A DNA stretch of 64,000 bases from Ruditapes philippinarum. Its lineage: Eukaryota. The notes below the pieces were generated by a model that saw nothing but the letters and a program-made list of their open reading frames with translations, searched no databases and was not told the DNA's origin. Where the stretch lies: contig NW_026865359.1 of the NCBI RefSeq assembly GCF_026571515.1, positions 1 through 64,000 of the forward strand. The letters are read 5' to 3'. This document shows positions 14,443 through 61,676 of this stretch, one piece after another. Numbering within the stretch: the stretch's first letter is position 1; each line of letters starts with the position of its first letter. The position numbers and the translations under genes were made by a program.

Positions 14443-14850
14443 GTAACCGCCGTATGAACACATCTGCGGATGTTTCTATATTCAAAATTTCACCATTTTC
14501 TTGTTAAATGTTGAATTTTGCTTAAGCCGGTGCTAGGGGGCGTGGACGGTAACTTGCACTTTCCAGTACCGTCCATGAACAGGCTCAATCAAACCGAGCC
14601 TGCAACATTTTACAATCTTGTCGTGTTGGGCTTTCTTTAGGGATTCTGTATTTCTCTATTTCATTGTCACATCCGTGTTATTTGTGCCGTGTGGTGGCTG
14701 TTAAAAGTCTCCCCGTACATTTAATCAATGATGTTATTTTCGATCCTTGAAGATCGTTCGGCACGACATTATTGTTGTGTATACATGATATGTGGTAATT
14801 TTAGTTTCTTCTATTTGGCCTTTTTCAACTTGGGTGGTTCCAGTATTCCT
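14443..14850 (+). repeat. Dispersed repeat with further copies at about 3185-3385, 40660-40860 and 43510-43790
   Basis: Shared core gtaccgtccatgaacaggctcaatcaaaccgagcctgcaacattt...ctttctttagggattc. Confidence 0.75.
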
Positions 14851-15144
14851 AATTGAATACTGTATAATCAAAAAAGAAATTCATAAGAACAAAATATGTT
14901 GAAATGATTATACAAAAGAAAAACAAAATAGATAACAAAAAAGAGAAAATAAACACAATAAAAAAAAACATCATAAGAATTCCGTTCGGACTTTGTAGTG
15001 TACGACGATAAAGACTTAAGTTATAAACAGTTGTTTACACTTCCAATCCCGGATAATAATGCACACTTACCCTTCAATGCACTACTGTTAAGTCCAAATT
15101 GTCATTTCAGGACAATAAAACCAGGGATGGTTATTCCTTCCTCC

Positions 15145-15630: not shown

Positions 15631-16360
15631 ATGACAGACAAATATTATCGACTAGTTACCATTTTGGTAAATATATGTCCTGGCCCTCTACGGGAATTGT
15701 TTCTGAAACAGGCAGCCGGAGACCCTAATCTCAAGACACCATACACTACATTAGATGCTTATTTAGCGTTCAGGAGAAAAGATATCAATAGAGTTACCCA
15801 AAAACCGAAATGTGTTATACGAAAGGATCAATTTGATTTGTTATTTCCATCTGCTGGGCAAGGTCAAACAGATATCGGCGCATGGGATGTGACATTATTA
15901 ACAGCTCTGTTGAAAAACATTTTTAGCTTAGCCCAAAATGATCTTGTGTGTATCGAAAAAATCAGGACAATCAGAAATGAGCTCCAACATATCGCAGGTA
16001 CGTGTAAAATAACAGAACATGATTTTAAGAATATATACACAAACCTTAGTGTGAACATTGTAAACTTAGCATTATCTGTTAAGGGTCAAGTCTATGCAGA
16101 CAAGATTGAACAAGATATTAAAGAGGTAGAAAGTTCTATATTAACAGATCTAGGAGATGTGCTAAGGTCGTGGTACATGAGCAAAATCGTTAAGTTGGAA
16201 ACAAAAATAGAAAACCTTAAGGTAAAGATAGATGAAATAAAACAAGATACAGGCAAAACCATGAAGACACTGAATAAAACCACTGTCAAGCGAACACGAG
16301 CCGGAGGTAAAAGTTTGAAACGCTTCAAAACTGTTGATCATATACTTGAAAAAATGAGAG
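15631..16360 (+). CDS. Gene A coding exon 1: DZIP3/hRUL138-like HEPN domain and coiled coil
   Basis: Acceptor tttttcag at 15624, ATG at 15631, donor AG|GTAAGC at 16361. Sequence QFDLLFP..WDVTLL..RNELQH..ITEHDF, then heptad-like KLETKIENLKVKIDEIKQD. Confidence 0.88.
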
Positions 16361-19300
16361 GTAAGCCTTCATATGAATTTTAAACTTTATGTCAAAAAGT
16401 AACTGCCATTATAATTTGGTGGTCGTTTAAACCATTGAGACAATGTCTGACAGTAAATGTTGATACTCGTTATTAAAGAATTTTATATATAATAAATAAT
16501 ATAATGTTTATATGATTCTTATTATTGATTTACAATGCTTAAACATTTTTCTTGTGTAATCTACATTATATTTTCAAATAGAAAACTTTGCGTCGTTGCT
16601 GAGGAAGAAACTTAACAGTGATTTTACACCTCCACCAGAAACTGCGAGAATCATTAAAGAAATCGAAGATAATCACCTAGTGGTCGTGTCAGGATACGGC
16701 AAAGGTCTATATCTACAAGCGGCACTCTCTGCTATTGATAACCAGGATTATGAAGCGGGAGAAAGCATCCTATGTTCAAGTCCCACTGACTGGCGCCACA
16801 TCGGTAATGAAGATGCCGAGTTAGTTGTATTCCTTCACCCATTTGGCGAAGGTACATTTGATTTACAGAAGGCAAAAGACTTTCGTTCAATTGCGGACAA
16901 TATTGTAGAGACAACTGACTCCAGGGACAATGATGATGTGCTAGATGTTGTCATAATAATGGACCAATCAATTTTAGAAGAATGGAAACGTCATTTTAGA
17001 CATGATATGATGAAACAACCAATCGTTGTCTACAAACCAACCACTGAAGACTCACCTGTGGACCTTATTGAAGGTACATTTATTTAATTACGCTAATTCA
17101 TTTTATTGTTTACAAATATAACCATGTTTTAAAGGCTTCTGTGTCTGATTATTTATTACTATTTATGACAAAATATTTCACTCATTTGTAGTAAGTCAGC
17201 TATTTGTTAGGTGTGTCACTTCCTTTTATAAACATCAAGATCTAGATACTTGACATAATCCTTTAGAATACATGGTCCTAATCCTACCATTTGAAATATA
17301 CGTTCGGTGTAGGATAAGAACGAGCTACTGATTCAATTATATGATACGATATTATTTATTTCGTTTTTTAGTAGAAAGCAGTATGTCACAGGTTGAAGCA
17401 GATCCACACTACAAAAACTTACTTGGTATGTAAAATTCAGAATTTTTATTAGATGAAAAGAAGCAAGCATATATAACTTATTATCATAGCATCAATATTG
17501 TGTTGCACAATTATGGATTTTTCATTTATGTTAGAAATAGTATAGTCAAACACCTATAAGAATAGTTAACTCTGGTACTTAGTCATCTTAGAAGAATGTT
17601 CGTTTTTTCCTTCTTGCAGTTCAATCAATTGCCTACAATAAACATCATAGAGCAAAGATGGCAGATAAACACTTTTTGGAAAACGCATTGGAAGAATTCC
17701 GCTCCAAGAAGGTAATCGTCATTTCCGGTCCACGTGGCAGTGGAAAAACGACGCTTGCTCTCTCCCTACTGTCGTCATATCAAGATGGTCATTATCTCAT
17801 ACTAACAGAACCGGGTGATCTCAGTTGTATTAGATTCGGTGTCACCTGTGTTGTGATCATCGAAGATCTTGGAGGAAAGTACATGTTCGAAATGTCCGTT
17901 ATTCAAAAGTGGTTGCGGAAGTTTGATATGCTCTACTCGGCAGTCAAAGATGGCAAACTAAACGTGATTATCACATGTCTAAAAGACCGGTTGAGTTCAT
18001 GCGTTCACGATTCGAAGCACCCAATGCTGGAAACTGTCATTGAATTACCGAAAGATTGTTTTGTTGAAATCAAGACAGAGTCATCGACAGGTTCGTATGA
18101 AATGTTCCATCTATCAGTATATTTAATCTTAAATTTTCCGAATATTTGTTTCAATATTGAATCTTAAATTTTGGTAATTATTCATTTATTTACGTTTGCT
18201 GGCTTAAGATATATATTTACATATAAATGTATTTAAAAAAGATCTTATTCTTGTTTGCATAAAGGAAAAAATACGATCTCAAATATGTTTTCAGATGGTA
18301 ATTCTGTAGTGTATGCTGGAAAAAGGTTAGTGCTCTTTTGTTCGTTTTTTTCTATTCCAGTTGATACTTAATTGTCAAGTGTTTGTTTTAGGATAAATGT
18401 TATTGTGTAACAAGCAGAATTTTTATAATCATAACTTGTTTTTATTATCTATTGTTATTTTGTGTGGGTAAGTAAAATATGGGACAAATAAGGTTATAAT
18501 TGTCCCAGGTAAAATATATTTTGATTTTACATCGAAACATCAAAAAAAGACATAAGCATACGACTGATGTATGAATATGAATAGACTTTTACTTAAATTT
18601 CTATATGTGTGACATATTCAGTCGGATAAAGCACACTCTTCAGCCGAAAATGGAACAAACAAAAAATTCAACATAAAATGTGCCATATTCGGTTGGATTG
18701 AGTTTTTCTTTGCTCATCAAAACGTTTTTGTCACTTACCCAAAAATATAAAAATGAACATACGATGTGCTTTTTAATTAAATAAGGCCGTTTTCAATAAT
18801 ATTGTTTATTTAAATATGGTGATGCTGCTGCTGATGATGATGATCATGCTGATGATTATCATGAAAATGATGATGATGATGCTGATAAGATGATGATAAT
18901 GGTTATGTAGATATTGTGGCGGATTTATGATTTGTCAGATTGCACAGTGTTTTGATGATCTTTCTCTTTTGTTTCATAGGCAAAATAAAGACACGTTCTC
19001 TGTTTTCACAATATGAAAAGTAACTTATGTACGAGCATCTGAATTTTACTTTTCTATCATTTTCCCTTTCCTTATCGACACGATAAGTAAACCCCCAAAA
19101 AATGAGCCTATCAACAAGCATACTCTTTTTATATTCCCGACAGACAGTGAGTGCGGTAACTGAAGTGCAGGTAAACAACATACAAGTAAACACTGGATGA
19201 CGTTATATGTTAAAATATCCGGCTCCCTGGTAACTGTTTGGTAGAAATATGACAAAGTCACTTTACCGCTGTAAATAGGTCCCGTCGGGTCTTACATTCT

Positions 19301-22300
19301 GGTCTGTTATGGCAGCATGTTTACAAATTTAAAGCCAAAGGTGACCGTAATATTGAATTCGACAAGTTCAATAAATGCAGAATTGAAGCTTTTGAATTTT
19401 AGGGCAAATGAGCTTGATGTAATTGTTTTGACTTTATATCAAGCTGAAACAAGCTGTTCTTTTTCCGCAATACTTTAACTTCCAGCTGATCAATGCCGCA
19501 ATAGTTTTTTTCGACCTTATTAAATTAACCAAATTTAAATAGTCATAGCTCTTTGAATATTATATTTCAATGGTTAATATTCAGCAAATGCGTATAAAGA
19601 AGAATTATTATATATAAGGGTGGCGTTTGAAGGTTATCTCTTCGCCACATATTGCTCTCAACGAATATAGCTCTCCTGAGAGCATTATCAGTTAACATCA
19701 AACTAGAATTGCAGCGAATATAGCTTCCCACAAATCATTTTACTGATTATCGTCATTGTCATCATCATCTTTTCTTCCACTCCTTCTTCACCTTCTTCTA
19801 CTTCTTCTTCTTCTTCTTTTTTATATATTATCATCAGTACACCATTGTTAGAACATCATCTTTGACAGTACAACATCATAATAAACAGGCATCATCATCA
19901 TCATCATCAGAATCGTAGTCGACATCGTCATAATCAATAGAACATCATCATTATCATTATCATCAGAACATCATCATAAGTATTGATATATTATCTATCT
20001 TTATCATCATAAGTACATCATCAACAAAATCATCTGTGAAATCCTCATAAGTACCATCATTACAACACCATCACCGTGAATTCGAAAGGTTTGAAAATAT
20101 TCTTTCTGATATAAGTGGCACCGTTGCCGGGTGGTTACGAGGGTGGTTCAAAAAGTAATAGGACTGCAGTTCTACTGTTCACATTTTTTAATTTACGTGC
20201 ACAATTTTACAAGATAATAATATCGGAACATATCCTCTATCTACAGTGAAAAAATCAATGAAATATGTTTAGAAATAACGAGTCTGTGAAAATTTCAAAA
20301 AACAAGGGGTACGCGACCCGGCGCACGCTAACAGCACAATAGATGACGTTTATGACGTGGTAAAATAAAAACAAAATGTATCAAGCGTCATCCCTTCTGA
20401 AAAGAATTCTCCCTAGTGTTCTAGGAGTCTAAATCATGTAACTTTGACCAGACCTCATAATGTGGAGAATGAAGCGAGAAAGAAAACGATACATTCTTGT
20501 TCACTCTCCGATAAAAAAAAAGCCCGAAAGCCGGCCACTCTCCCGCTTTTTTCTCGTATTCTTGTATCTAATAGTAATCGATATAGATTAAGCAGCCATG
20601 AACTTATGCATGCTAATAAAAAAGCGATTAATATAATTATTTTTACACATATCATCGTACGTTATTAAAACAATATGATTATGTAAGTAAATAAAAATAG
20701 TTATCAAACTGAAAAAGTAATATTTTCCTACTAGGAACAGCATATCATTTTTAAAAGAAAACGGGGAAAAATATTAATAATTACCGTTAATCATTATTAC
20801 ATATTAAATACTGATAAACATATATCTAGTTTAATGAAATAGAATTTTGTTTGAAACAAAACATTTGGGCAGATCTGAATGCAGAAATCAAACATGCCGG
20901 ACAATTTCGTGACTGTTTACCGTCGATCATTTTGTAGCGCTTTTTGCATTTGACGTCACTAACATCCCGTTCAATTTCCCGCTATCATTCTCATCCTTTT
21001 TCCTGGGGTTTGTGATTTCGTATGTGCAGTTTTTGAATTGCTTGCGGAAAGCTGGGAACGAGTATCCTGATAGCCGATTAATTGTACTGTGTTAATTTTA
21101 TGTTTTCATAATGGGGTATCTAAAGGAGTATCGCCAATTTGTTGGCAAGTTAACTGATCGCACACATTTTCAGTTTTTTTTAACGAACGTCAAATTTCTC
21201 ATTTAAACGTTATGACCACTGCTGTTCAAAACTTGATGATTTAGCCATTTCATGTCTGAATGACGTCAAGTTTGGGCATAATGTCAACTTAAATGTAAAT
21301 AATTGTGTTGGTGGGAATAATGGGGAAAAAAAGAAAATAAATTAAATATAATAAAATAGAAGTTCCAAAATAAGCTTCAATAACGTTTTTATGTGCTGCG
21401 CCGGGTTTTGCGTTGTTGACCATGGTTTTAAATTTGATAACAACGGGGAACAAGGCGTAAAAGGCACAAGAATTCAGTATTTTATGGCTTAAATTTGAAG
21501 AAACACGATTAATTCGATCGCTGTTACATATAAAAATATTCTAAATAGAATTGAATATGAAGATGCAAGACTCTTAGTCCTATTACTTTTTGAACAACCC
21601 TCGTACCTCTCTGGTAGCTGTGTTGGTTCAATACCAACAGGGACAAGCCGTTGTAAATTTAAGCTCATTGCTCTATCTATAACCATATAGCTTTTTCACA
21701 TTCGAATTAATAAGGATGTCTCAAATTTAACAAAATGGATAAATAAAATCATTTTTTCATATCTTTCGAGTCTATACAATTCAATATGTACCCTGACTTG
21801 CGATAACAAGCATCTTTTACTTACAATCAATGTATACTTCAACTTGTATCTTTCTTTGTATAACAGAAAGAAGGCTCGTTTAGGCACTATATTTAAAGCA
21901 TCATGCCTCCAGATTCATGCTTATCTTCTTGAATATTTTGAAAATGTATTTAAGGTAAAATATTGTACAGTGAGCAAAACAAAAACAAATTATGATTCAA
22001 ATAAATAACCAAAAAATGCCATAAAATGGCAAAAAGGCCCATTTTCCTCTAGTTCGACTTTCTTGAAATATTTTTGGTCATCTAGAGGCATACAGCTTTA
22101 TCAAGTTACACGAATTTATTACATGTTTATTAATGTTATAGTAAAAAAAAACAAATATAAATATATCCAAAACATGAATGAGATCAACAATTTCCTTCCC
22201 TGTTATTTATATTAAAAAATATAAGAAAATAGACATCGGACTTCATATCATTTACCATAAAAAATAATTATGATGCTGTTGACAGTGATCAAACCAAGCT

Positions 22301-25255
22301 GATTATGATAAGATAATAAAAAAATCCATAATGTGATGATAATAATAGATATAAAATGGTAGTTATGATTATGATGATGAAAGAGATGATAATTATGATC
22401 TTGATGATAATGATAGGAGTTATAATGATCTAATGCTGATGATCAGTGTAATGATTAATGATGATAATGTTGGTATGCAGGTGTGAATGACTCTGCATTA
22501 TTAATATCCTGATTATGATGTTGAAGAAGATAATGATAATATTTTAATGACGATAAAATGGCAGAAATGATGATTACGGAGGCAATGGTAATTATGGTTT
22601 CGATGAAGAGTATGGTTGTGATAACAATTTTGATGACAATGAGCGTGGTACTGATTTTAAAGTGATGAATATTAAGGTTATAATCATTTCGATATTAATA
22701 GGCATCATGATTATTTTATAAGGAAGGGGCATATTATGATGAATGATGATGATAATGACAATATTCATCATGATTTGAATAATGATGGACGTGATGCTGT
22801 TTTTATTGATGATGATGTTGATGACGATGATGGATTAGGTGATGATTTTGATGATGATAATAGTGATGAATATGATGATGACGACAACATTGATTTAACA
22901 AAGTTCATGACGGGGAGCTCTATTGATCAACACAAGCATCATTTTTTTAATGTTATATTGTGAAAAAACTCCTTAGAGCTTTATTCTTAACTGATAAAGC
23001 TCTTGGATGGCGTTACAGTACCACGTTTATCTTGGCGCTATTTGAGTCAAGATCGAAATACCGCGTACGGTGTTAAGTCTTGAATAGAATTCCACTGAAC
23101 GCACATTATAACTGTGCATTATTACGAATTCTAGATTATAAGCGATGAATAATTGCGCTTGGGTTATATCATTTCGGTTCTACCACACATCAACAAAAAC
23201 TTCTGCCCACCTTATATCAAGGTGCGTCTGATTTATTTCAGCGCGTCACATTTTAATGGTTTCGTCACATATCAAAATAGAGATCATCAACGGTAATTTT
23301 ATTGCAAATTTACACGCACTTTTGGTCCTTCTATATCCAAAAGGGAAAAGTGCAGGTGGTGTAAGATATAAAATAGCACACAATACATCGGACTACATAG
23401 AGTCATTGTGCCCCCACCCCCACAGTTAGCGTTTAACATGTTTGTAGACTAAGTGAATTGTGACTTTAATGCTGAGTCCATATGTGTTGTATGCTTTATA
23501 TCTTAAATAGGTAAATTTGATCATGCCAAGTTGTATTAAGGTGTAATGATGTTGTATATTGGGAAGATGAAATAAGTTTAAGAAAAAAGTGTAATAGTAA
23601 GAGGTTGTTATGAAAAACCAAACATTATAAGAAAGTTCTATTTATTATCATGATTATTATCTTCTTATATAACTCGTATTCCTCAGAAAAATCTTGGATA
23701 ATTTTAATTTCAGTGAATTTAAAGGCATTTGAATTAACAATATATTCTGTGATAAATGTATGGTTCAATGTGACCAAAAACTGTCAGTTTATTCATTTCA
23801 GTGTAGAACAATGATCAGTCAAATATCACTGTTTAAAAACTGCAACAATTGTATTCTAAATAAACAACCTATTTACTACTACATTGTCTACACCTTTAAA
23901 AAAAGACTTGATAAAAGTCCTGTACGCAGAACATGTCTGTTTGATTCTATATATATGGTGTTATATTATATACAGCGTTCAAAAATTAATATGAATCCCT
24001 TTCGGTAACGCTTCATTCATTTGGCTAATGAGTAAATACGGTAATTACAAATGTACACGATATAGGGCTCGAATCTAAGATCACTTTCACTTGAATAACA
24101 GATAAACAAACGTACCACTGGAAAACCTCTGCCCTTTATTTAGTATCATTATTCAAGTACATCTACACAAACACATACCTGTATTATATTTTCTTAAAGG
24201 TCTAGAACATACACATTAATATTTTAGGAAGTGATTTTTTTAATATATAAGCACTTTCATGATGATGAAATTCCAGGAGGTAAACATGTTTTGTATAAGC
24301 ATTAGATTTTGACATCATTTGTCAATAATACTGTTTTATTCATGTATTATTATTATATTTCAGTCCGAACACATCATCCTATAACAGAGTAAAGATGATC
24401 CAAACGCATACAATTAAAACTCCTGAAAATGTGGAAATTTACGAGATGGAAGAATGTTGTCAACATCCAGATGGGTCATTTCTCTATTCAGCCAAAATAC
24501 AAGTATCATCAGTTAATGATAATAAAGATGATTCCATCTATACATCTCAGAGATATAAAACTGTTATTATTCATATCAGTTCAGACTTTGAATACCAATG
24601 TTACTACAATACGGATATAAAAGAAGACTGGTATACTACAAAACATATCTGCTGTACTGATACTGGGGATGTGGTGATGTCTGTGAAAAGAGAATTAAGA
24701 TTGTATAGAATATCAAGCGGAAGTCTTCAATTCATCAAATCTATAGATGTGGGGTTTGAGTGCACAAATATTTCCTTCTTCAAGAATAAGATTAACTGTT
24801 TTACTTATGGGGCATCATTAATTTTAGATACAAATCTAAATATAAAGAGAAGAGTAGAACTCATGGAAATTGCTGCCGACAATATTTTACCATGTTCATT
24901 ACAAAAGTACATCAGTACTTGGGATTCTGATTTTGGCAATAATTGTATCATATGTCAGGATCCCAGACTTAAGCAACTTAAATATTTAAGAAATGAAGGA
25001 TTTCTACCTGAGTGTATATGTGCTGCTACTGAGGACAGTGTATTCGTATTTGGAAAACAGGCTGGGGACTTCAAGATTTTACAGGTGAACACTGACTTGA
25101 TGGTGCTCTCAGAAATATGTAAAAACAATGAAGAGATTTTCCAGTTTCAACAAATGTATGAATATAAAATGGTGTTTGACAAAGATAATTCCAGATTAAT
25201 CATATTCTCAACAGCTACCGGGAACGCATTATTTCGTACAATTTACTTAGAGTAA
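15631..25255 (+). CDS. Gene A (spliced, 889 aa): HEPN_DZIP3-like + coiled coil + degenerate nSTAND3-like domain + nSTAND3-like P-loop NTPase + C-terminal beta-propeller-like domain
   Basis: Exons 15631-16360, 16582-17073, 17372-17425, 17620-18090, 18295-18325, 24364-25255. All introns are GT..AG with phases 1,1,1,1,2, giving one open 2670-nt frame. Motifs: WDVTLL...IRTIRNELQH (HEPN), ISGPRGSGKTT (Walker A), VVIIEDLGG (Walker B). Colinear with gene B. An acceptor 6 nt before the ATG implies an unlocated 5' UTR exon. Confidence 0.85.
16582..17073 (+). CDS. Gene A exon 2: degenerate (pseudo) nSTAND3-like NTPase domain
   Basis: Phase 1-1 exon. LVVVSGYGKGLY sits at the Walker A position, SPTDWRHI follows, and LVVFLHPFG sits at the Walker B (hhhhDDxFG) position. 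Confidence 0.82.
17372..17425 (+). CDS. Gene A exon 3: 54-nt linker micro-exon (VESSMSQVEADPHYKNLL)
   Basis: tttttag acceptor (TAGTAG tandem acceptor), G|GTATGT donor, open in phase 1-1. Same size and position as gene B exon 50796-50849. Confidence 0.7.
17620..18090 (+). CDS. Gene A exon 4: nSTAND3-like P-loop NTPase
   Basis: ttcttgcag acceptor, AG|GTTCGT donor. KVIVISGPRGSGKTTLA, VVIIEDLGGKY, NVIITC. Confidence 0.88.
18295..18325 (+). CDS. Gene A exon 5: 31-nt linker micro-exon (DGNSVVYAGK), phase 1 to 2
   Basis: ttttcag acceptor and AG|GTTAGT donor. Supplies exactly the phase shift needed to join the NTPase exon to the terminal exon at 24364. Confidence 0.65.
20138..21603. mobile_element. 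Tc1/mariner-type non-autonomous element in gene A last intron
   Basis: 28-bp TIR CGAGGGT(G/T)GTTCAAAAAGTAATAGGACT, TA on both sides (20136-20137, 21604-21605), no transposase ORF. Confidence 0.88.
22270..22890. repeat. Degenerate (GAT)n tract; others at 18820-18900, 19740-20075 (CAT) and the duplicate at 61895-62570
   Basis: Directly visible trinucleotide low-complexity sequence. Confidence 0.85.
24364..25255 (+). CDS. Gene A terminal exon: beta-propeller-like (NHL/six-bladed-like) domain
   Basis: tatttcag acceptor in phase 2. About 296 codons of repeated beta-strand/turn pattern (HICCTDTGDVVM, PECICAATEDSVFVFG, MVFDKDNSRLIIF). AATAAA at 25392. Confidence 0.75.
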
Positions 25256-31599: not shown

Positions 31600-33930
31600 T
31601 AGTAGAACAAGTACTCTGGACCGCGTAAGATTTATTCCATTTCAGATTTGACTACTTTGTTATCAGACTTATGAGAACCCTTATTTGCTTTGTCAGGTTC
31701 GGCTACATTTGGCACACTCTTTATCACAGACAGAATCTTCCACACGTTTGCAAGCATTACGAAAATCTTCGACATTCAGACTATCATAAACAGTGTGTTC
31801 AACACTAGGAATTTTGTTTCCTAAAGTGCCCAAATTTGTATTTATTTCATCGTCAATGATATCCTTAACTTCATTTTGTTGTTCTTGGGACACTTCATTA
31901 CTTGTTACTGTGTCAATAAAATGTTTAGTTACATGGTCACTAGATAACCTTTCTTCCTTAGAAACACTCGTTTCAAAGCTTTCACTAGTTAAATTCTTCT
32001 GTTGGAACAACTCAGAATCGTTAAATTGTTTTTCCGATAAAGTTTCAATGTCTGCAACACATTCTTTACTTTTATTTAATAATGTTTCCCTGGACATTTT
32101 AGTACTGTTTGAAAGACTGTCATCATATTGTTTTGAAACAGTACTACTTACAGTCTCGTCCTTACCTGAAACATTACCAGTAGGTTATTTTGCAACAGGA
32201 TCAAGATTTTGTTCAAATTGTTTTATTGCAGTGGTACTTGAAATTATTTCATGATCACAGTCAACGTCATTGCACTGTTGTACCATTGTAACAGTATCAC
32301 AAGACACACTTATTTTATTTGTAACATCAGAATCACTTTGTATCTCTAGATTATTACAAGATGTACTTTCTCTTTTGTTTTCCCTGATGCAATGTGTTTC
32401 CACATTTAAGTTCAAATTTCTTTTAAATTCATCAACATTTTTATCAAGTGTTGTTCTAACTGTTTTATTTCTTCATTTACTTTCTTGCACTCCCTATTCA
32501 ACCTTTCATATTCAGCTTCTAGGAACCCTCTATCCCCCTCTGATGATATCTGTCGTTTTCTGTCTCTGCTACTTATTCTGAAAGTAATATGTAAGGTATA
32601 GTCACTTGAGAGAGAGAGCCAAGACTTTGACGTTAAATTCGCATTGGTTTTAACGATTCAAAACAGTAAGATATATACATTTAAATGTTTGCAATTTTAA
32701 TGCAAATGAGTCATCGTTATTCAAAAATTTATATGAAGAATTGAGCAAATTTTACATAATAAACCTGTTAGTAATGTGAATTAACTTTACATGTGCTTTA
32801 TTTACAAAAGCATCCTTATTAAATGGCTTGTAGAATTTTATAGATATATTTTAATTATAAATGAAATCATTTCAAAGCATTTAGGCTTGTGCTATGTAAG
32901 TAACCCGCTTGCATTTGACTTAAAGCATGTCATTTCTTTATTCAGTTACACTACTGAAACACGACTGCAAAGTATGTAAACGTTCAAGTATCCATGTGCA
33001 TTAGGACTTAACCTTTCTACAAACGAACATATGGGATTATTTCTTCACCAAAAAGGAATAATTCTAATTAATGAAAATAGTTCAGTCAGACTTCCCATTT
33101 CCCCTTTAATTTAAAGTTTCATAACCCATTATTTTAATCGTTGTGTAAGTGAATTGGACTAACCTGTCTTTCTTAAGCTGCTTAAGTCTTGTTCTCAGCA
33201 CTAAAGTTTCTGTGACATCTTTTTTAACCCGACACGCTTGAAGGATGTCTCTTCACTGACGGCATTTTTCCATTCCAACTGAACATTTTTTGTCATTAAT
33301 TACTAAATTTGACTCTACATTGTTAACCCATTTTGAATAACTTGTTACTTGTTCATTTTCATTTTCACTAGTACTTGACTATAGAAAATTAGATTTTTCC
33401 CCGTAGTCGTTACATGTTCGGATTTAATTGGACTTATGTCATTCTCTATGGAAATGATTTCCAATGATTTATGTTAAGATATAGTAAACGACTCTGGATT
33501 ATTATGAGTTAGTTCAGGAATTCTGTGCTTCATGGTACTTTACCAGTATCGTGTTGAAGTTTCTATTCCGACACTATATCATCTTCTAAACTGCCCCCTT
33601 TAATAAGCAGAACTTCCAAATGTATCAATTTCAAAGTCAAAGAATAAATAATCATTATCACTATTTCTATTTTTATCATCCCCTTTTCAAAAGCTTTCAT
33701 TAGACTTGCTGCAACTGCCATTACTCACGTTTTCTGTTGTTGGTGAGTGATAATGAAGATCCAGTGACACTGGGTCTTTTCATCTGAGTGTAATTAGCAC
33801 CAGTCACGCACACAAACTCTAGGGAGACTAGACTTATATCTAATAGTCTGATTTCAGTTGATTCTTTGAAACATTTTTAAATGGCATGGTTATCACGGAT
33901 GCTTGATTTTGTCTGCTTTTCAGATACATA
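31600..33930 (-). pseudogene. Decayed, at least two-exon gene for a low-complexity S/N/E/K/D-rich protein with a short coiled coil; family unknown
   Basis: Minus-strand donor AG|GTTAGT (exon ends 33164) and acceptor tttcag (exon starts 32577) are phase-2 compatible. ORFs 32185-32415 and 31693-32097 share a frame separated by one stop. Frameshifts near 32455 and 31700, and several in-frame stops in 33164-33930. Confidence 0.6.
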
Positions 33931-48463: not shown

Positions 48464-49136
48464 ATGGCGGACAAGTATTATAGGCTTGTGTGTTTTCTAG
48501 TTAACATTACTCCCCGACCACTAAGAGAGTTATTCCTTAAGTACACGTGGACGGACCCAAAATTTTCAACTTGTTCAACCATTGATGCTTGTCTTAAATT
48601 AATGAAACATCAGCTTTACCTTTTAAAGAAGAAAAAAATAATCAGACAGAAACAATGGGAACTCCTGTTTCCATCAACACCTGGTAAGGTGGTAGATGAA
48701 ACATCTTGGGACATAACTCTGGTTATTATATTAATAGAGGAATTTCACGGAAACAAGCTTCAACAGGTAGAAGAAGACGCTATTTCCAAGATACGAGGAA
48801 TTCGAAATCGACTTCAGCACTTTGCTGAAACTTCAATTGATGATGCAGACTTTGACAATATGTGGACAATTTTAGAATGCGCAACCATTGATATAGCTAA
48901 GCAAATACAACCTTCACCTATGTACGTAAACGCTATTCAAGGAAACATTAACGAAACCAAAATTAATAATCTGCCGAATCTCGGAGATTCTTTACGTTAC
49001 CTATATGAGACTATTATAATTCAAATGAAATCTGACATGGAAGATATGAAAGAAATCATGGAAGAACTTGCTGAAAAATGTAATGAATCTCGAAACATTC
49101 TTCTGAACACAACTGAGAAGCGTGTTGGACCAACTG
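48464..49136 (+). CDS. Gene B coding exon 1: DZIP3-like HEPN and coiled coil
   Basis: QWELLFP..WDITL..RNRLQH..IDDADFDNMW. Acceptor tttacag at 48457, donor G|GTATTA at 49137. Confidence 0.88.
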
Positions 49137-52100
49137 GTATTATAGTTACTCTAATATTAATTCATCCTGGCATTATATACTCCATCGCAATGATTATTTT
49201 TTAATTTTTATTAGATTATTTTTTCTTAATTCGTCCAAAGATATGATTGGATATAACTCGTGTGTTAACATGGGTTTGCAGTTGCAAAATATATGAACAA
49301 ATATGCAATCTAATTAAGAAAACAGCAATGAATGGAAGCGAAAGGATATCATTTTGAGCTTAAAACGCAAAATCATGAGTAAAAACAAATGATTGGTTTG
49401 GATTGCAAGATGGTAGAAAATCTGATTCAAAGCAATGTTATTAATACCTAAGATGGTCCCAATTATTTTTGTTTTAAAAGTGTTTTAAAAATTCCGAATT
49501 TATTTTTGTTCTTTTATAGGTGAAAAAGTAAAACGAATGAAAACAGTTGACCATATTCTTAAAAGACTAAATGGTATGTGGAATTCAAGTAACCTAAAAT
49601 CAATTATAAACCATGGCTTCAAAACTTACAAGTGCCTTACTAATTTGTTATATATTTAACGTACTTATGCTGTGTTTTGTAATTAAACAACTTTGATCCG
49701 TTTAAAATAAGTTGAATATTTATTGTTCATTTAATATTGACAGGGTAAAGTAAGATGTATAAATAAATAAATATATTCATTAATCTGTTCATTTATAAAT
49801 CATTTCGAAAGATTAAAACAAATTTTAGAATATTAACTTTCTCTACAAATGCATCGCCTAAATAAGAGACAAATCATTAAATAAAATATTTCCATTAAAC
49901 AGTAAAAATACCATCATCCTATTGTACAACTTATTCATTTCTGAAATGATTTGTCAAAATTACATTAATATATGTGTCATTAATCCTCATTAAAAAGAAA
50001 AATAAATACGTTTTTAAATTTTTATTCATGTTTCAAGACAATTTCACCATGTCGATGAAAGAGGACTTGCCAAATAACTTCGATAGTCCACCGGAAGTCG
50101 CTGATATCAAAACAAAGCTGCGAGATGTTCACCACGTCGTTGTTACAGGGTCAAGGGGTAGTCGGTATATCGAAGCTGCTCTAGCTTCATTACAAAGTAT
50201 GGACTACAATCATAATCGATGTGTTGAAATGAAAAATTCGTGTGACTGGCGACACATAGACCCGGATGAAGTGGATCTTGTATTATGCCGAGAACCTTTT
50301 GGCGACTATGTGTTTGATAAGGACAAGACAAAATCTATGGCAGATATATTCAGTAGTATGCTACAAGTTGCAAAGATTTCTGAAAAGTACAAGAACATAG
50401 ATATTGTGATCGTGTCCGAGAAGGAAATACTCCAGGAAGTATTAAAGTTCACGGAACATGACCTTCTTCAGGAAGTGGTAGAAGTTTATCAGCCTACAAC
50501 GGAATCAGATCCAGCAGATCTAACAGGTTAAATGTTCTTTTTGTACTTATGTACTTGGAAGTCTGCCACTTTTCTAAACGATATGCAATTGGATCATGGT
50601 TCTTTTATTGATAATACTCTGATTGGATAAAACAGTTTAATATTTCTATGATACAGCAGAATAATAAAGATTGAGAAATAAGATTTATTAACGAGTTACA
50701 TATAGATAAAACAATATTGTTTGTGTCTGAACATGTACAGAAAAAGTTGTTGATTATAAAACATAAGTTAAATTTACTTCTTATACTTCGAATAGGTACA
50801 TGTGGCAATTCCGAGATGGATTTTGATCAAGCAACACGGAATCAGCTGGGTAAGAGAAAACAAATCTATTATTTATATATCAGTTAAGTTCATTTACGAA
50901 AAAAATCAACTTAGTTTTCGATTTCCGCTTGAATTGCAGAATTATAAGTAACAGGTAAAGTAAAATGTTCAAAAGAAATCTAAAAGCATAAACTACATGT
51001 AATCAGTTAGATAAGTAACAATAAACCAACAATAATGGCATTAATTAATGTTTCAATATTTTTCGATAAAAACAATCAATGAATTACTTTAAAAGTAGAT
51101 TCAATTCAATTCAGGGGCTCATTGACATGCCGGGTCAGAAATTTTTTTTTGAAATAAATTTTCCATTTGATGTTGGTCTAGACCAATATTTTCTTGTAAA
51201 AATTTCAGATCATTTGCTCTTTTCGCGCAATTTGTTTTTTTTTTCCAGAAAATGTCGATCAAACAGTGTGCCATGATAAATCTATATGCATGCCTATGTA
51301 CTTTCGGTATATTAATTGTTCAATTCAACAAATGATTAGAAACTCTTGATTTTAATTTGCACTTCGATAATGATTTGAAGGCAATATGTACAATCACTTT
51401 CGACCATAATCTTCTAATTCGATACCATTTATTACTGGTGTTACAATTTCAGGATACAATTTTATATGTGGTTTGTGTAGTTATGTGCTTTAAAATATTC
51501 TAGAATAAACACCAAAAGGAATGTGGTATAGAATTTTCAACATTTAATAAAAATGAATATCATGAGAGAAAAAAATATTTTTTCAAACAAAAATCGTTTC
51601 AGATTTAACTGCGGTATTTGTTGAGCGGTACAAAGATGACAACCTGCATCCCGCTAGTGTTGTAAATGAGGCGAGAACGACATTTAAGAGAGACAAGGTT
51701 ATTGTTATAACAGGGCCGAGGAAATGTGGAAAGACTACTCTGGCTGTAACGCTAGCATCAAGGTACCAGAAAAACCAGTTTCTGGTTCTCAACAAACCTG
51801 ATGACATGAAACTAATAAGGCTTGGCTGTATTTGTACTGTATTAGTTGAGGACTTTGCGGGGAAAGGCAGTTACAATGGTACCTATGCAGAAGCTTGGTT
51901 AAGAGAATTTGAACTGCTGTTCAGTGCCGTATGTTCTGGAAAGCTAAATGTTATTATAACGTGCGAGAAGAGAACACTTCTTAAATGCAATGAGGAAAAC
52001 GGTCCTCACCCAATTCTCAAAAACACCATCGTTCTCGAGCAAGTCAGCAGAACTGTTAAGCAGGAATCAACTAGTACTGGTACTATTTTTCATGGTTTTG

Positions 52101-55100
52101 TATTTTTGTAATAACTTTTTAAATAATTACAGTGACAGGAATTTAATGTTATTAGTATTTAAAGATATTTTTTGTAAGTAATATTTGTTTGAGTGGATAT
52201 CATTTTTCACAATCTTATTTTCATAACAAATATACATTTACAGATTTCAATGACACAGCCGCCATTGCAACACGTACTGTACAAAGGTGTTCGTTCAGTA
52301 TGGAAACGTAAGTTGAGAGTTCATTTTTTCGTTTATCCAATTGTTACTTTTAGATTAGTATTATTTCTCCTGAACTAAAACTTCTGTAATCAAAAATTTG
52401 ATGAAAAATCAATTATACATAAGTGCAGTGTGACGCCGCATTTTTATACGCCCGAAATAATATCGGCGTATATTGTTATGCACTTGGTTGTTCGTCCGTC
52501 CGTCTGTCCGTCCGTCCGTCTGTTAAAGGGTTGTATTTTTCGGTCTGTATTTTTTGAACCGGTTGAAGGAAATTCAAAGTACTTGGCAGACATATTTACC
52601 ATAATCAGACATATTTACCATAATCAGAAGATGTGCAGAGCGAAGGTTTGACCTTTCTCATGTCAAGATCAAGGTCTCACCTAGTCATTTTGTTTTAATA
52701 TCAAAATGTTTTGTCCGCTTTTAATCTTTTGAACCGATAAAAAGAAATTAAAGCTTTTTGGCATACATATTACTTATATTGAAACGGTGTGCAGAACACA
52801 AGTTTGAACTTCCTAAAATTAAATTTGACCCCGCCCCGGGGATACATTGATTTACATAGACTTATATAGGGATGTTCGTGTCTGGTCTGTATCTTTTGAG
52901 CCAGTGAAAAGAAATTGAAACTATTTGAAATGTTGTTAATCATAATGAGATGATATGCAGAGCGCAGTTTTGGACTACCTCAGATCAAGGTCAAGGTCAC
53001 ACTGACTCATTCAAAATACTTATTTAAAGTGTATATATTACAAAAGGAGTTGACAATGTATGAATTTATTGATATGTTTCCTCCAAATATATACATATAT
53101 ATATATATGAACATGTATTAACCTCTCTTTATTTTTATTACTTTATAATGTTGTTGTTTTTTTTTCTTTTCAAACTTTATTTTTTTAGATTTTTGTTTCT
53201 GTTAAGATTAAAATAATTAAGGACCTTTTATTGGTTTCTATGATTTAATTATTTTTTAATGAGACAATCTTATTAATTGAAATTGATGTTACTTGAGATA
53301 TGTAAATTCACTAAATAATAATAAGTTTTAAATGAGGCATATAAAAAGTCAAGTAACAAATCCAAGATCTCAGTTATTTGGCATGTATTATTACACAGAA
53401 GAACCCTGCTATTTTTTCCAAGTATCATTTCTCTGATATTATAAAATGGCTGTGCCCAGAGGGTTAGAATATGGGCAGGTCTGACACAGTTTACGTGTAC
53501 ACAGATTTGTATAGTACGCATGTTTTAAAAGTCTTTTCCTCCACTTTACAACATGCAGAGCATAAATATTTAGCTTGTATCATCACTTTTTAAAAGTAGA
53601 ATTATTAGTTTTGTGATGAATGTTTGTGTGAGTATTGACGTTATAAGTGTAACGGGAGGTTATAAAAAGAAGAAAATTAGTTGTAAGCATTTTATTATTT
53701 ATATGCACAATATTTTGTGCTTCTGAATTTCTGATATAATATCATTTTATGTTTCTTTGAATTGTTATCATTTAAAATCAACAATATTGTTGTTTTCTGT
53801 CAGTATATATACTCCGTGACAATTGCATTGAGATAATTAATCACCATAGTAGTTTTTAAGGGCATGAGTGGTGACATGTCAGGGGTATGTTCTCCACAGC
53901 CGAAGGTGTGGCATATACAATTGTCACTAAGTATTCATGTGACAAGAGCATATCTCTTTGACATGTATCAATATAGATCTCAATATTGATAATTGAAATA
54001 AAACATGTTATGAACAAATTTTATAAATGGTATCCTCTCTGTTGAACATTATTTTTGACAACTTTAAATTTTATTTACTTAAAACAAATTTGCATTCGGA
54101 CGTATATTGCCACGCTATGCTGTGTTCTTGTTTATTCTGCCAAGGTTGATATTTTTGAACATTGATAAATTAGATTTGTCATCAAAATGGTCACCAAATA
54201 TTGTTAAAAAGTATTACTTTATAACTTCATAGAGAATCATTATTAATAACAGACATTAAGTTGTGATTATAAAATTTAAACAATTACAAAAACAAACATT
54301 TTCATTCTTTAGAAATAACAACTTTGTTTCCAACGAATCAGACCACGTTGAAAAGAGTACACACTCTTCAGACGCATTCAACAACATAAAAGACACGTGT
54401 TCAATGAATGAGAACACTATTCTTTGTCTAAATTCAACTGGAACAGTCTTAAAGCTTGACAAAGAGCTCGATGTCGAGGCAACGTTTTTAACAGAACAAC
54501 AAACGGCTTTTGAAAGGATATGTTGCTTAGATGATGATAGGTTCCTTCTTGTGAATGGCAAAGAAGTTTCTATATATGAACTGAAGTCAAATGAGATTCA
54601 CCTCATAACGACAACGATTCTTGACCACGAATCTGACTTTATAGCAAAGGGAAAAAAAGGAATGATAACAATCTTAAACAAGAACATCATATACGAGTAC
54701 ATGTATGACGGTTACTTTGAATTACAGTTTAAAAAGCTCCTTCCTATGAAACCATTGATGGACAGTTTCGTAACAGACGCGTCCGTCATATCTGAACGAA
54801 ATTGCGTTATCGTTGTAAAACAGGGTTCCATTCAATCGATAACATACAAAGAAAAAAGGACAATTGAACGAGTACTATATTTTGAAAGAAATGAAATTCA
54901 ACCAGTGGCTGTTTGTGCTGGAAAGGAAGTTGTACTTATTCTTTGTCTGCAGAACAATCAGGCGAAAGTTTTGAAGTTTGGAATTGATCTTGAGAAACTT
55001 GGATCTATCAGGCTTGACGAGGTTGCATACAGCCCATTCAACGTCTCATCAATGATGTATGATTCAAACTTATCCAGACTTCTTATCACATACAGCGGAA

Positions 55101-55162
55101 AACTTGACGCTTTCGTAGGCGGTAAGATTCGTTGTTCCTTCTTCTTACAAACTGGGCGTTAA
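48464..55162 (+). CDS. Gene B (spliced, 886 aa): paralog of gene A, HEPN_DZIP3-like + coiled coil + degenerate nSTAND3-like + nSTAND3-like NTPase + beta-propeller-like
   Basis: Exons 48464-49136, 49520-49573, 50038-50526, 50796-50849, 51603-52079, 52244-52307, 54313-55162. GT..AG introns with phases 1,1,1,1,1,2, giving an open 2661-nt frame. MADKYYRLV vs MTDKYYRLV in A; IRGIRNRLQH; ITGPRKCGKTT; VLVEDFAG. Acceptor again 6 nt before the ATG. Confidence 0.87.
49520..49573 (+). CDS. Gene B exon 2: 54-nt micro-exon (GEKVKRMKTVDHILKRLN)
   Basis: ttttatag acceptor, G|GTATGT donor. The peptide matches gene A GKSLKRFKTVDHILEKMR. Confidence 0.85.
50038..50526 (+). CDS. Gene B exon 3: degenerate nSTAND3-like domain
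   Basis: VVVTGSRGSRY at the Walker A position, DWRHIDP, LVLCREPFG at the Walker B position. Ends PTTESDPADL, like A's PTTEDSPVDL. Confidence 0.83.
50796..50849 (+). CDS. Gene B exon 4: 54-nt linker micro-exon (GTCGNSEMDFDQATRNQL)
   Basis: aatag acceptor after a pyrimidine tract, G|GTAAGA donor, open in phase 1-1. Confidence 0.7.
51603..52079 (+). CDS. Gene B exon 5: nSTAND3-like P-loop NTPase
   Basis: The frame is open upstream of the listed ORF (51806): KVIVITGPRKCGKTTLA...TVLVEDFAGK...NVIITC...HPIL. tttcag acceptor, G|GTACTA donor. Confidence 0.87.
52244..52307 (+). CDS. Gene B exon 6: 64-nt linker exon, phase 1 to 2
   Basis: tttacag acceptor, AC|GTAAGT donor, open (DFNDTAAIATRTVQRCSFSME). 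Confidence 0.72.
52441..53010 (+). mobile_element. HINE-like fragment in gene B last intron
   Basis: tttttatacgcccg..cggcgtata hairpin, GTCC microsatellite, tcaaggtcaaggtca core repeats. Confidence 0.6.
54313..55162 (+). CDS. Gene B terminal exon: beta-propeller-like domain
   Basis: ttctttag acceptor in phase 2. RICCLDDDRFLLV, PVAVCAGKEVVLIL and MMYDSNLSRLLITY parallel the motifs of A's terminal exon. Confidence 0.75.
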
Positions 55163-60357: not shown

Positions 60358-60501
60358 NNNNNNNNNNNNNNNNNNNNNNNNNNNNNNNNNNNNNNNNNNN
60401 NNNNNNNNNNNNNNNNNNNNNNNNNNNNNNNNNNNNNNNNNNNNNNNNNNNNNNNNNNNNNNNNNNNNNNNNNNNNNNNNNNNNNNNNNNNNNNNNNNNN
60501 N
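60358..60501. other. Assembly gap (144 N)
   Basis: Run of n characters. Confidence 1.
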
Positions 60502-61676
60502 GCATAGATATTTTAATGTGTATAAAAAACTTTTAAAAGTTTATAAAAAAGAAATATTTCACCGAATTTTTTAAAAGTGTAAGTGCTTATTTGTAAAATG
60601 TTTAAAATACTTATATTGGCTTCCAAGTCGTTAATTTGTACGTTATTTCTCTGATAAATTAATTCATTAATAATTCCGTTTTAAAATACAATGTTATTGC
60701 TAAAGTTTGCATGGAAAGAAATTGTTATGTTTGGTGTTAATGGCATTCTTTTCCTCCATTTGTTTTTTTGTTATATGAAAAAATCATTACTTTGGTAAAA
60801 TCATTAAACAATATGCCGCAATTAATTTGAACATCTGAAGTCGTCTTTGACGAAAACAGTCGCAATATAAAGTTATTTTTGTCATACGACATTTAATAAA
60901 GATACAAATTGTATGTTTATCATTATTTTACCATTTTCTCATTTCACAGTGCGAAAAAGTGAGGAATTTGAGTAAATGAAGGTTCAATACTGAATTTATT
61001 GAAAGAGTATAATAAAAGTTCCTTGCACATCAGTTTTCTGGTGATAACACCGGTGCTTTATAATTTAATCTTACACCAACCTGTACGCAAACCTGAGTGC
61101 TTTAAAATGGCGTAATTCCTTTCCTTTTATGAATGAATGAAGTGCTAAGGATGACGTTATTTCGTCGTAAATATTCAAACACTGCTATAAATAATAGAAA
61201 GAGCATCGAAACACGAAGCTTATGATTAGTCAGATTGCCGAGTGTTTTGATGTTCTTTCTCTTTTGTTGCATAGCCAACAGTAACCAATGTACGATCATC
61301 TAAATTTTACATTTCTATCGTTATCCCTTTCCTTATCGACACAATAAGTAAAGCCCAGAAAAATTAGCCTATCAAAAAGCATAAATTTTCATATCCCCAA
61401 CAGACAGTGCGTAACTGGAGTGCAGGTACACAACATGCATGTAATCACATGATGTTGTAATAGATTGGAGTTCACTAATAACTAATATATGCACTCCAGT
61501 TAACATTTCATAATATTCACACTGGCGATAGCTTTCGCAGAAGCTGTGGGTCCATCGCAGCGGCGGTGTAGTATTCGTCGCAGAAGCGGTGGATAAAATA
61601 CGGCCAAGTTTAAAGAAATACTATAGAACAGTTTTAATTTTGCCTATATGTCTATATGAAAACTCAGGAAAACGTC

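Follow-up and report, generated by a model that had tools for sequence, protein, structure and literature searches.

The closest described relatives of the genes considered here are receptors of the STAND class (signal transduction ATPases that have numerous domains) that carry an nSTAND3 nucleotide-binding core. The bacterial representative is Avs5, a Sir2-nSTAND3-repeat protein (PDB 9jap, 9nc9; PMC11897194, 10.1101/2025.07.08.663546). In the solved nSTAND3 relative EfAvs5, ATP lies between the nucleotide-binding domain (NBD) and the winged-helix domain (WHD), where the TTR arginine reads it, and defence is lost in Walker mutants (PMC11897194); Walker and Arg mutants of Avs5 are also described in 10.1101/2025.07.08.663546. 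For oysters and other bivalves, proteins that combine HEPN, nSTAND3 and ankyrin (PF18738 with PF20720) are listed by Kaur et al. 2021 (PMC8195603, Figure 4 source data), and HEPN families are tabulated in PMC3710099. Here we describe a clam family of different build, represented by two genes in a 64,000-nucleotide stretch of Ruditapes philippinarum DNA (contig NW_026865359.1, positions 1 to 64,000; hereafter the window). Each gene encodes a HEPN RNase-type domain, a coiled coil, two truncated nSTAND3 nucleotide-binding cores (the first designated D1, the second D2), a short linker and a beta-propeller. Set against the traits of nSTAND3 and Avs5 proteins, both cores lack the sensor-1 arginine and the GxP helical and winged-helix segment, and D1 lacks the Walker A and B residues as well; the protein, although derived from nSTAND3, would act as an NLR-type receptor (NLR: nucleotide-binding, with leucine-rich repeats) that has no nucleotide switch.

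The bivalve HEPN-nSTAND3-ankyrin proteins share with the clam family the HEPN head, the nSTAND3 core, the order of effector, NTPase and repeats, and a lineage-specific expansion. However, a long exon of theirs encodes one complete NTPase, with GxxGxGK, DD, T[ST]R and the GxP helical module, whereas the clam proteins have two truncated cores without lid or sensor-1 Arg and usually end in a propeller. Avs5 has the same NBD fold as D1 (Z 9.5-9.8) but depends on Walker A and B, on the TTR Arg and on contacts between NBD and WHD, of which D1 has none and D2 only the Walker motifs. EfAvs5 binds ATP without hydrolysis and is activated by assembly, and in this respect we liken the clam family to it, assembly of the clam proteins being presumed. 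The HEPN-NACHT-LRR/TPR/WD40 NLR-like proteins of pearl oyster resemble the family in their HEPN domain with Rx4-6H, their expanded tandem gene family and their repeat sensor, but they carry a complete NACHT switch in place of two bare nSTAND3 cores (PMC9646362). Bacterial nSTAND2 two-gene systems likewise have HEPN ahead of an inactive STAND that is paired with a Walker-intact core, HEPN or GT4 sitting on the inactive partner (PMC8195603). These differ in being two genes of another STAND family with an arginine finger in both partners, whereas the clam protein is one chain, with a propeller as its likely sensor and with a second core that is in many cases dead too.

The window is AT-rich animal DNA, and both paralogs are spliced, intact and on the plus strand. 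Joining the exons at GT-AG boundaries gives an open reading frame (ORF) of 889 aa for gene 1 (six exons, 15631-25255) and of 886 aa for gene 2 (seven exons, 48464-55162), each with 0 internal stops. The exons are listed below with the evidence for each, which includes AlphaFold2 (AF2) models and contigs from two runs, X1 and X2, presumed to be RNA.

15631..16360, +: gene 1 exon 1, DZIP3-like HEPN (RNELQH at 15973-15990), coiled coil and basic hairpin (PF18738, also called DZIP3/hRUL138-like HEPN, 48.7 bits; gene model; AF2 of the close paralog P0005; RNA contigs)
16582..17073, +: gene 1 exon 2, D1, a dead lidless nSTAND3 core, phase 1-1 (Pfam, motifs, AF2 and fold matches, spliced contig 16580-17071)
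17372..17425, +: gene 1 54-nt micro-exon, D1-D2 linker (gene model; contig joints 17075-17374 and 17424-17619; low pLDDT at 397-417 in P0005)
17620..18090, +: gene 1 exon 4, D2, a lidless nSTAND3 core in which Walker A (GKT) and Walker B (ED) are present and sensor-1 Arg is not, phase 1-1 (Pfam, gene model, motifs, contigs)
18295..18325, +: gene 1 31-nt micro-exon, D2-propeller linker (gene model; GT..AG joint 18323-24362 in contigs of X1 and X2)
24364..25255, +: gene 1 last exon, fast-evolving NHL-like beta-propeller, the likely sensor (all-beta in AF2; Foldseek match to Brat NHL, E 8e-9; dN/dS 1.37)
48464..49136, +: gene 2 exon 1, HEPN (RNRLQH) and coiled coil (PF18738 54.2 bits, gene model)
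49520..49573, +: gene 2 predicted 54-nt exon finishing the basic hairpin (splice consensus and alignment to gene 1; joint not among the RNA contigs)
50038..50526, +: gene 2 D1 exon, dead core with GSRGSRY and REPFG (Pfam, gene model, motifs; joint 50524-50794)
50796..50849, +: gene 2 54-nt linker micro-exon (joints 50524-50794 and 50848-51602)
51603..52079, +: gene 2 D2 exon with GPRKCGKT, LVED and IITCE (Pfam, gene model, motifs, contig joint)
52244..52307, +: gene 2 64-nt linker exon, predicted solely from reading frame and splice consensus
54313..55162, +: gene 2 last exon, divergent beta-propeller (ORF, gene model; RNA pieces over part of it)

A single 1424-nt contig from run X1 joins 16110-16358, 16580-17071 and 17619-18087, leaving space for the 54-nt exon, and contigs of runs X1 and X2 join 18323 to 24362 at a GT..AG boundary. 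The path from D2 to the propeller in gene 1 thus comprises 39 codons past the sensor-1 position followed by the 31-nt exon. Contigs of gene 2 contain the joints between D1, linker and D2; its D2-to-propeller joints were not found among the transcript-type contigs, where coverage is thin. Neither run is on record as RNA, although the contigs are probably transcripts because introns are skipped exactly. Between 4 and 6% of the raw reads were taken, and exon coverage is thin.

The loss of the lid is evident when the clam cores are set beside canonical nSTAND3 domains. Motifs were counted in domains with at least 120 aligned residues from fetched loci of the genome (46 D1, 38 D2, 12 canonical), in database proteins, and in non-redundant sets collapsed at 70% identity (50 D1, 33 D2, 38 canonical). 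Canonical domains have the Walker A Lys in 12/12 genome and 33/34 database cases and the sensor-1 Arg in 11/12 genome and 35/38 non-redundant cases; Lys, Walker B acid and Arg occur together in 34/38 non-redundant canonical domains, in 0/50 D1 and in 0/33 D2. A GxP motif follows the core in 29/34 canonical database domains and in all 12 canonical genes of the R. philippinarum genome, as against 0/62 D1 and 0/35 D2. Out of 13,746 reading frames from the window and the fetched loci, those matched by a profile of the canonical post-NTPase helical region (41 sequences) all belonged to canonical loci, save for one match at E 0.74. The profile of the canonical helical segment matched 0/62 family proteins; its canonical matches are expected by construction. 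No helical domain follows D2 in the full-length AF2 model of P0005, where only a linker is seen. A hidden helical exon between D2 and the propeller was considered and is ruled out by the contig joint 18323-24362 together with the profile result. A reading of the window made from the letters alone (the sequence-only reading) had held that the GxP helical and winged-helix module seems absent and had inferred a non-canonical mechanism of activation. Both claims hold, the second in that the helical and winged-helix lid and the sensor-1 Arg are gone. Because ATP in EfAvs5 is enclosed by the Lys, the Walker B acid, the Arg and the WHD, which neither clam core has together, neither should be able to run a switch of the EfAvs5 type, judging from established STAND anatomy.

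D1 is the more degenerate of the two cores. In gene 1 its Walker A site reads GYGKGLY (16692-16712) and its Walker B site LHPFG (16833-16847), and D1 of gene 2 (50038-50526) follows the same pattern. Against Pfam nSTAND3 (PF20720) the two D1 domains score 23.6 and 22.8 bits (E 5e-5 and 8e-5), below the 27.2 cut-off. The Walker A Lys is found in 0/46 genome copies and 0/62 database domains, the first Walker B acid in 0/50 non-redundant domains, and the sensor-1 Arg in 0/46 genome and 5/50 non-redundant domains. A Gly, a Trp and a Pro-Phe pair are invariant in the genome copies, Pro-Phe following the Walker B strand in 46/46, and the canonical Trp and Phe-Gly positions are kept in 90% and 98% of D1. 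The ratio of nonsynonymous to synonymous substitution rates (dN/dS) is 0.35 over 14 disjoint paralog pairs, and by this measure D1 is maintained by purifying selection. Accordance with the sequence-only reading is close on these points: each motif it had reported, a scaffold without the Walker Lys and acids, is in place, and the degeneration is shared among copies and not random, as it had supposed. Pseudogene decay is ruled out by the open frames, the splicing and a dN/dS well under 1.

Among the roles that the same reading had suggested for D1, autoinhibition and decoy are treated below as candidates; for binding of a nucleotide or second messenger, and for regulation of D2 as the purpose of D1, we depart from it. 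All phosphate-binding residues of the D1 pocket are lost, and Tyr often stands where the Lys would be. The net charge of D1 is negative in 47/50 non-redundant domains (median -6 per 100 aa), whereas D2 is slightly basic. As a candidate in its own right, a second-messenger pocket is ruled out by the acidic domain and by the lack of a basic or Gly-rich loop. As to regulation of D2, some D1 domains sit in arrays that have no D2 and are joined to a peptidase-like tail.

Structure prediction and superposition place D1 among AAA+/STAND cores, as the sequence-only reading had expected. The AF2 model, built on a 20-sequence alignment, has a five-stranded alpha/beta core at a predicted local distance difference test (pLDDT) of 87.5. 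Its best structural matches are AAA+ cores, led by NSF D2 (Z 11.1, root-mean-square deviation (rmsd) 3.0, 138 aligned), and Avs5 is also matched (filament 9nc9, Z 9.8, rmsd 4.6, 140 aligned; 9jap, Z 9.5). Foldseek agrees weakly with the AAA+/nSTAND3 matches, and an nSTAND3 cluster heads the Atlas matches (0.91). Sequence searches of the PDB, whether by the D1 profile or by protein P0001, gave nothing meaningful. D2 has the same order of strands and helices as D1 in the full-length AF2 model of P0005, which comprises HEPN, coiled coil (174-217), hairpin, D1, a disordered linker, D2, a second disordered linker (575-600) and an all-beta tail; its domains are confident and their mutual arrangement is not (predicted template modelling score (pTM) 0.37).

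D1 also shows the traits of bacterial inactive STANDs (iSTANDs) of the BrxB type as described in PMC12839542, namely a five-stranded core, lost Walker motifs and a missing helical bundle. The known examples, BrxB, BrxF, PglW-iSTAND and MoxR-vWA iSTAND/iSTAND2, are lidless and Walker-less (PMC12839542, PMC8195603). However, the cap-like sheet after strand 4 is not present in the D1 model and its nearest relatives are nSTAND3, BrxB having been compared by description only. D1 is nSTAND3-derived and animal, it is conserved and acidic whereas the bacterial iSTANDs evolve fast, and, unlike them, it stands in tandem with a second core in one chain. The likeness therefore appears convergent, and the animal lidless cores seem to have arisen independently of the bacterial ones.

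D2 is better described as half decayed. Gene 1 has GPRGSGKT (17727-17750), IIED (ED at 17862-17867) and IITC followed by Leu (17973-17981), gene 2 has the equivalent pattern (51603-52079), and the two score 47.8 and 46.1 bits against PF20720, over the 27.2 cut-off. The sequence-only reading had taken D2 to be motif-intact, which is correct for GKT and ED in both window genes but not for the sensor-1 Arg, which is found in 0/38 genome copies and in 1/33 non-redundant domains. The Walker A Lys is present in 33/38 genome copies, being lost in one clade of 5, and in 22/35 database proteins. GK is absent from 9/9 named Mya D2 domains, leaving both cores dead within an architecture that is kept whole; named Mercenaria D2 domains have the Lys in 9/9, four of them without Walker B acids. 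These acids are also lost in a genome clade of 8, and both are present in 16/33 non-redundant domains. D2 is under purifying selection as well (dN/dS 0.42, 14 disjoint paralog pairs). The losses of Arg, Lys and Walker B acids argue against D2 as the working partner NTPase that the sequence-only reading had envisaged.

At the two ends of the protein the picture is different. The HEPN Rx4-6H motif (RNELQH in gene 1, RNRLQH in gene 2) is intact in 20/21 full-length relatives, Mya included, and RNase activity is predicted from it (PMC9646362). Among four close paralogs, all 6/6 pairs give a propeller dN/dS of 1.01-1.71, as against 0.25-0.44 for D1 and 0.14-0.37 for D2; two disjoint close pairs, pooled, give 1.37 for the propeller (95% interval 1.02-1.98), 0.30 for D1 and 0.24 for D2. 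The propeller is, on these substitution ratios, under diversifying selection. Brat NHL is the top Foldseek match of the tail and other propellers score similarly; the window propeller exons have no Pfam NHL match, and a weak one (E 0.007) is found in two relatives. Between coiled coil and D1 lies a basic beta-hairpin (window 16260-16340 in gene 1, at the end of exon 1) that is conserved in nearly all members, the 35 residues ahead of D1 being net basic in 33/35 proteins. It could bind RNA, pair with the acidic D1 or serve as a nuclear localisation signal.

A second gene-1-type propeller exon, open, starts near 63,925, in a region formed by window 61277-64000 and L096:1-812 that also copies the 3' part of the last intron of gene 1 at ~83-85% identity. 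No HEPN, D1 or D2 exon lies between gene 2 and this exon, and an N run (60358-60501) is situated just upstream of the region. It may be either an orphan or, for gene 2, an alternative last exon of phase 2.

The family, whose genes are likely immune sensors, is large, and its named members come from clams. At least 53 D1 exon matches were found in the genome among 63 scored candidates and at least 60 D2 matches among 79, some of the latter canonical, and we estimate ~40-50 loci. For pairing, one overlapping D1 match was dropped (52 left) and 43 D2 matches were kept, long-frame canonical-type matches and split pieces being excluded. A D2 exon lies at most 12 kb downstream at 39/52 D1 places and a D1 upstream at 39/43 D2 places; 9/13 unpaired D1 exons sit in D1-only arrays. 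A profile search of 1.84 billion representatives gave 57 matches at 1e-10 or better; 30 were looked up, and the 26 that are named all belong to Ruditapes, Mercenaria or Mya, so that relatives are seen in three clam genera. The nearest named proteins, uncharacterised models from Ruditapes philippinarum, are 99% to 80% identical over D1, and a Mercenaria model with the layout of the window genes has 59% identity. Most proteins have a D1-D2 linker of ~21 aa. The genome contains many canonical long-exon nSTAND3 genes (194 candidates; 21/21 scored were over the cut-off), and none was found in the DNA fetched around family loci.

The D1-only arrays comprise five exons on C10271 (L083, L084; P0001), two on C2576 (L085) and two on C13043 (L086). 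All three end in the same tail, which resembles trypsin-like or Nal1_C peptidases, and no HEPN exon was found upstream of them in the fetched DNA. The first D1 exon of the C10271 array contains a stop. A third family copy on the window's own contig, at about 96-104 kb (L087, L099), has frameshifts in its HEPN, D1 and D2 exons and an open propeller exon. The Mercenaria gene models P0018, P0011 and P0023 are, as annotated, variant architectures: D1-D2-D2 followed by Roc-COR-Death, an ankyrin tail replacing the propeller, and extra HEPN domains ahead of D1.

Trees made by quick and FastTree methods recover D1 as one group and D2 as one group, with Shimodaira-Hasegawa-type support of 99 and 98 in the first tree and 98 and 94 in the second, so that the loss in D1 is a single event which, as far as sampled, predates the Myida-Venerida split. 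The D1 and D2 exons have candidate phase-1 boundaries in common, with an acceptor at about -36 to -38 and a donor at +39 in 19/46 D1 and 24/38 D2; canonical exons mostly have a similar acceptor but extend 165-1475 codons beyond sensor-1. The simplest account is that a new phase-1 donor ~39 codons past sensor-1 cut a long canonical nSTAND3 exon, removing the lid, and that the resulting symmetric one-domain exon was then duplicated. D1 would subsequently have kept Asp-Trp and Phe-Gly and lost the nucleotide site, with D2 doing roughly the reverse. The D1 exon stayed mobile, as the arrays of 5, 2 and 2 before the peptidase-like tail attest.

How such a protein might signal is a matter of weighing several readings. 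We favour, with moderate confidence, a switchless receptor family of the clam lineage in which the cores are kept as scaffold and ligand-driven clustering activates the HEPN RNase without ADP/ATP exchange. It is at the interface of a dimer that HEPN active sites are formed. In this reading the diversifying propeller would bind a foreign ligand, binding would lead to clustering, and clustering would bring HEPN heads together as an active dimer. The acidic D1 would be a protein-contact module, possibly keeping the basic hairpin and HEPN head closed until clustering, and the D2 P-loop would be a residual phosphate- or NTP-binding modulator in venerid clams. The D2 Lys is taken as dispensable because it is absent from 5/38 genome and 9/9 named Mya copies while the HEPN motif survives in 20/21 relatives. 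Several observations weigh against this reading. The Lys is retained in 33/38 genome D2 and 9/9 named Mercenaria D2 across deep paralog splits, which suggests that in most venerid copies a nucleotide or phosphate contact is selected beyond what a scaffold needs. The interval of the propeller dN/dS begins only just over 1, and dS may be distorted by gene conversion. With a pTM of 0.37 the packing of the domains is not fixed, and the contact of D1 with the hairpin is a charge argument only. Neither tree shows D1 and D2 as sisters (support is 74 in one, and the canonical domains are not one group in the other), and support for an origin by single duplication comes from exon boundaries, which RNA confirms only in the window. 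Ligand, oligomer and RNase activity are all inferred or predicted.

The retained P-loop could be accommodated by a pair of unequal partners, as in the sequence-only reading, in which D2 binds NTP, D1 replaces the helical module as an allosteric lid or trans-acting neighbour, and the nucleotide state gates HEPN. Both Walker B acids in about half of the non-redundant D2 domains (16/33), the Lys in 33/38, the close pairing of D1 and D2 exons (39/52 and 39/43), the ~21-aa linker of most proteins and the precedent of bacterial nSTAND2, where an active STAND works beside an inactive one (PMC8195603), are all consistent with it. However, both nSTAND2 partners have an arginine finger whereas the sensor-1 Arg is present in 5/50 D1 and 1/33 D2, Mya copies keep the architecture with both cores dead, D1 is found without D2, and the linker is disordered in the model, so that we hold this arrangement to be possible yet unlikely. 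We would give similarly tentative standing to D1 as a new adaptor domain, comparable to Death or CARD, in that HEPN-D1-D2-propeller receptors clustered by ligand would present arrays of D1, to which the peptidase proteins with D1 repeats would be recruited, and might also dock on filaments of canonical nSTAND3. Docking is also central to a doubtful proposal in which canonical HEPN-nSTAND3-ankyrin receptors in the same cell are bound on their winged-helix face by the bare acidic cores, which would either join the filaments, adding RNase or peptidase effectors, or cap them. EfAvs5 filaments do pair an acidic NBD face with a basic WHD face (PMC11897194), D1 is acidic with the canonical Trp and Phe-Gly largely kept, and there are 194 canonical candidates in the genome; on the other hand the DNA fetched from around the family loci contained no canonical gene, and with its own diversifying propeller and intact HEPN the family looks self-contained.

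Direct sensing of nucleic acid by D1 (and D2), with activation of HEPN, has been proposed for bacterial inactive STANDs (PMC8195603, PMC12839542), whose lidless and Walker-less form D1 shares, and the clam effector is of RNase type. We consider it improbable here, as D1 is negatively charged in 47/50 domains and slow-evolving, diversification being carried by the propeller. Still more improbable is D1 as an integrated decoy that baits pathogen proteins attacking nSTAND3 receptors, the binding of which would trip the HEPN head. D1 does keep its fold and some canonical surface positions and is reused ahead of a second effector type, but decoys in an arms race are expected to diversify whereas D1 has a dN/dS of 0.30-0.35, and we know of no pathogen protein that attacks nSTAND3 receptors.

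The family keeps an intact-looking RNase head and a diversifying sensor and, if the switchless reading is correct, discards the nucleotide switch thought central to NLR-type receptors. Plant NLRs that function without an intact P-loop offer a partial eukaryotic precedent; they keep their helical modules. Inactive subunits of the origin recognition complex are another partial precedent (PMC8195603). We found no description of tandem or inactive lidless nSTAND3 in clams or any animal in the literature covered, subscription papers being mostly outside it, and the architecture nSTAND3+nSTAND3 had 0 matches in the PMC8195603 supplement files covered. The parts are known separately; what is new is the tandem lidless nSTAND3 form in an animal family. 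The series from canonical, through lidless with a P-loop, to doubly dead cores offers natural material for testing which functions of a STAND core are separate from ATP. Genes of this kind are missed or mislabelled when NACHT or NB-ARC domains are counted in farmed clams. Were the adaptor reading true, this would be an ATP-free RNase-plus-protease immune pathway and the first animal counterpart of bacterial iSTAND systems.

Elsewhere in the window, a Ser/Thr/Glu-rich ORF without Pfam match lies at 31693-32581 on the minus strand, and a similar frame occurs in L100; from this likeness, a neighbouring gene may have been duplicated along with the locus. The frame at 43910-44302 (minus strand) has no Pfam match and looks like a fragment of a long interspersed nuclear element. 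Further along the contig (L097) there are, by eye, endonuclease- and reverse-transcriptase-like frames. A repeat element of high copy number lies at 14500-14883 and is covered very deeply by each of the four runs mapped.

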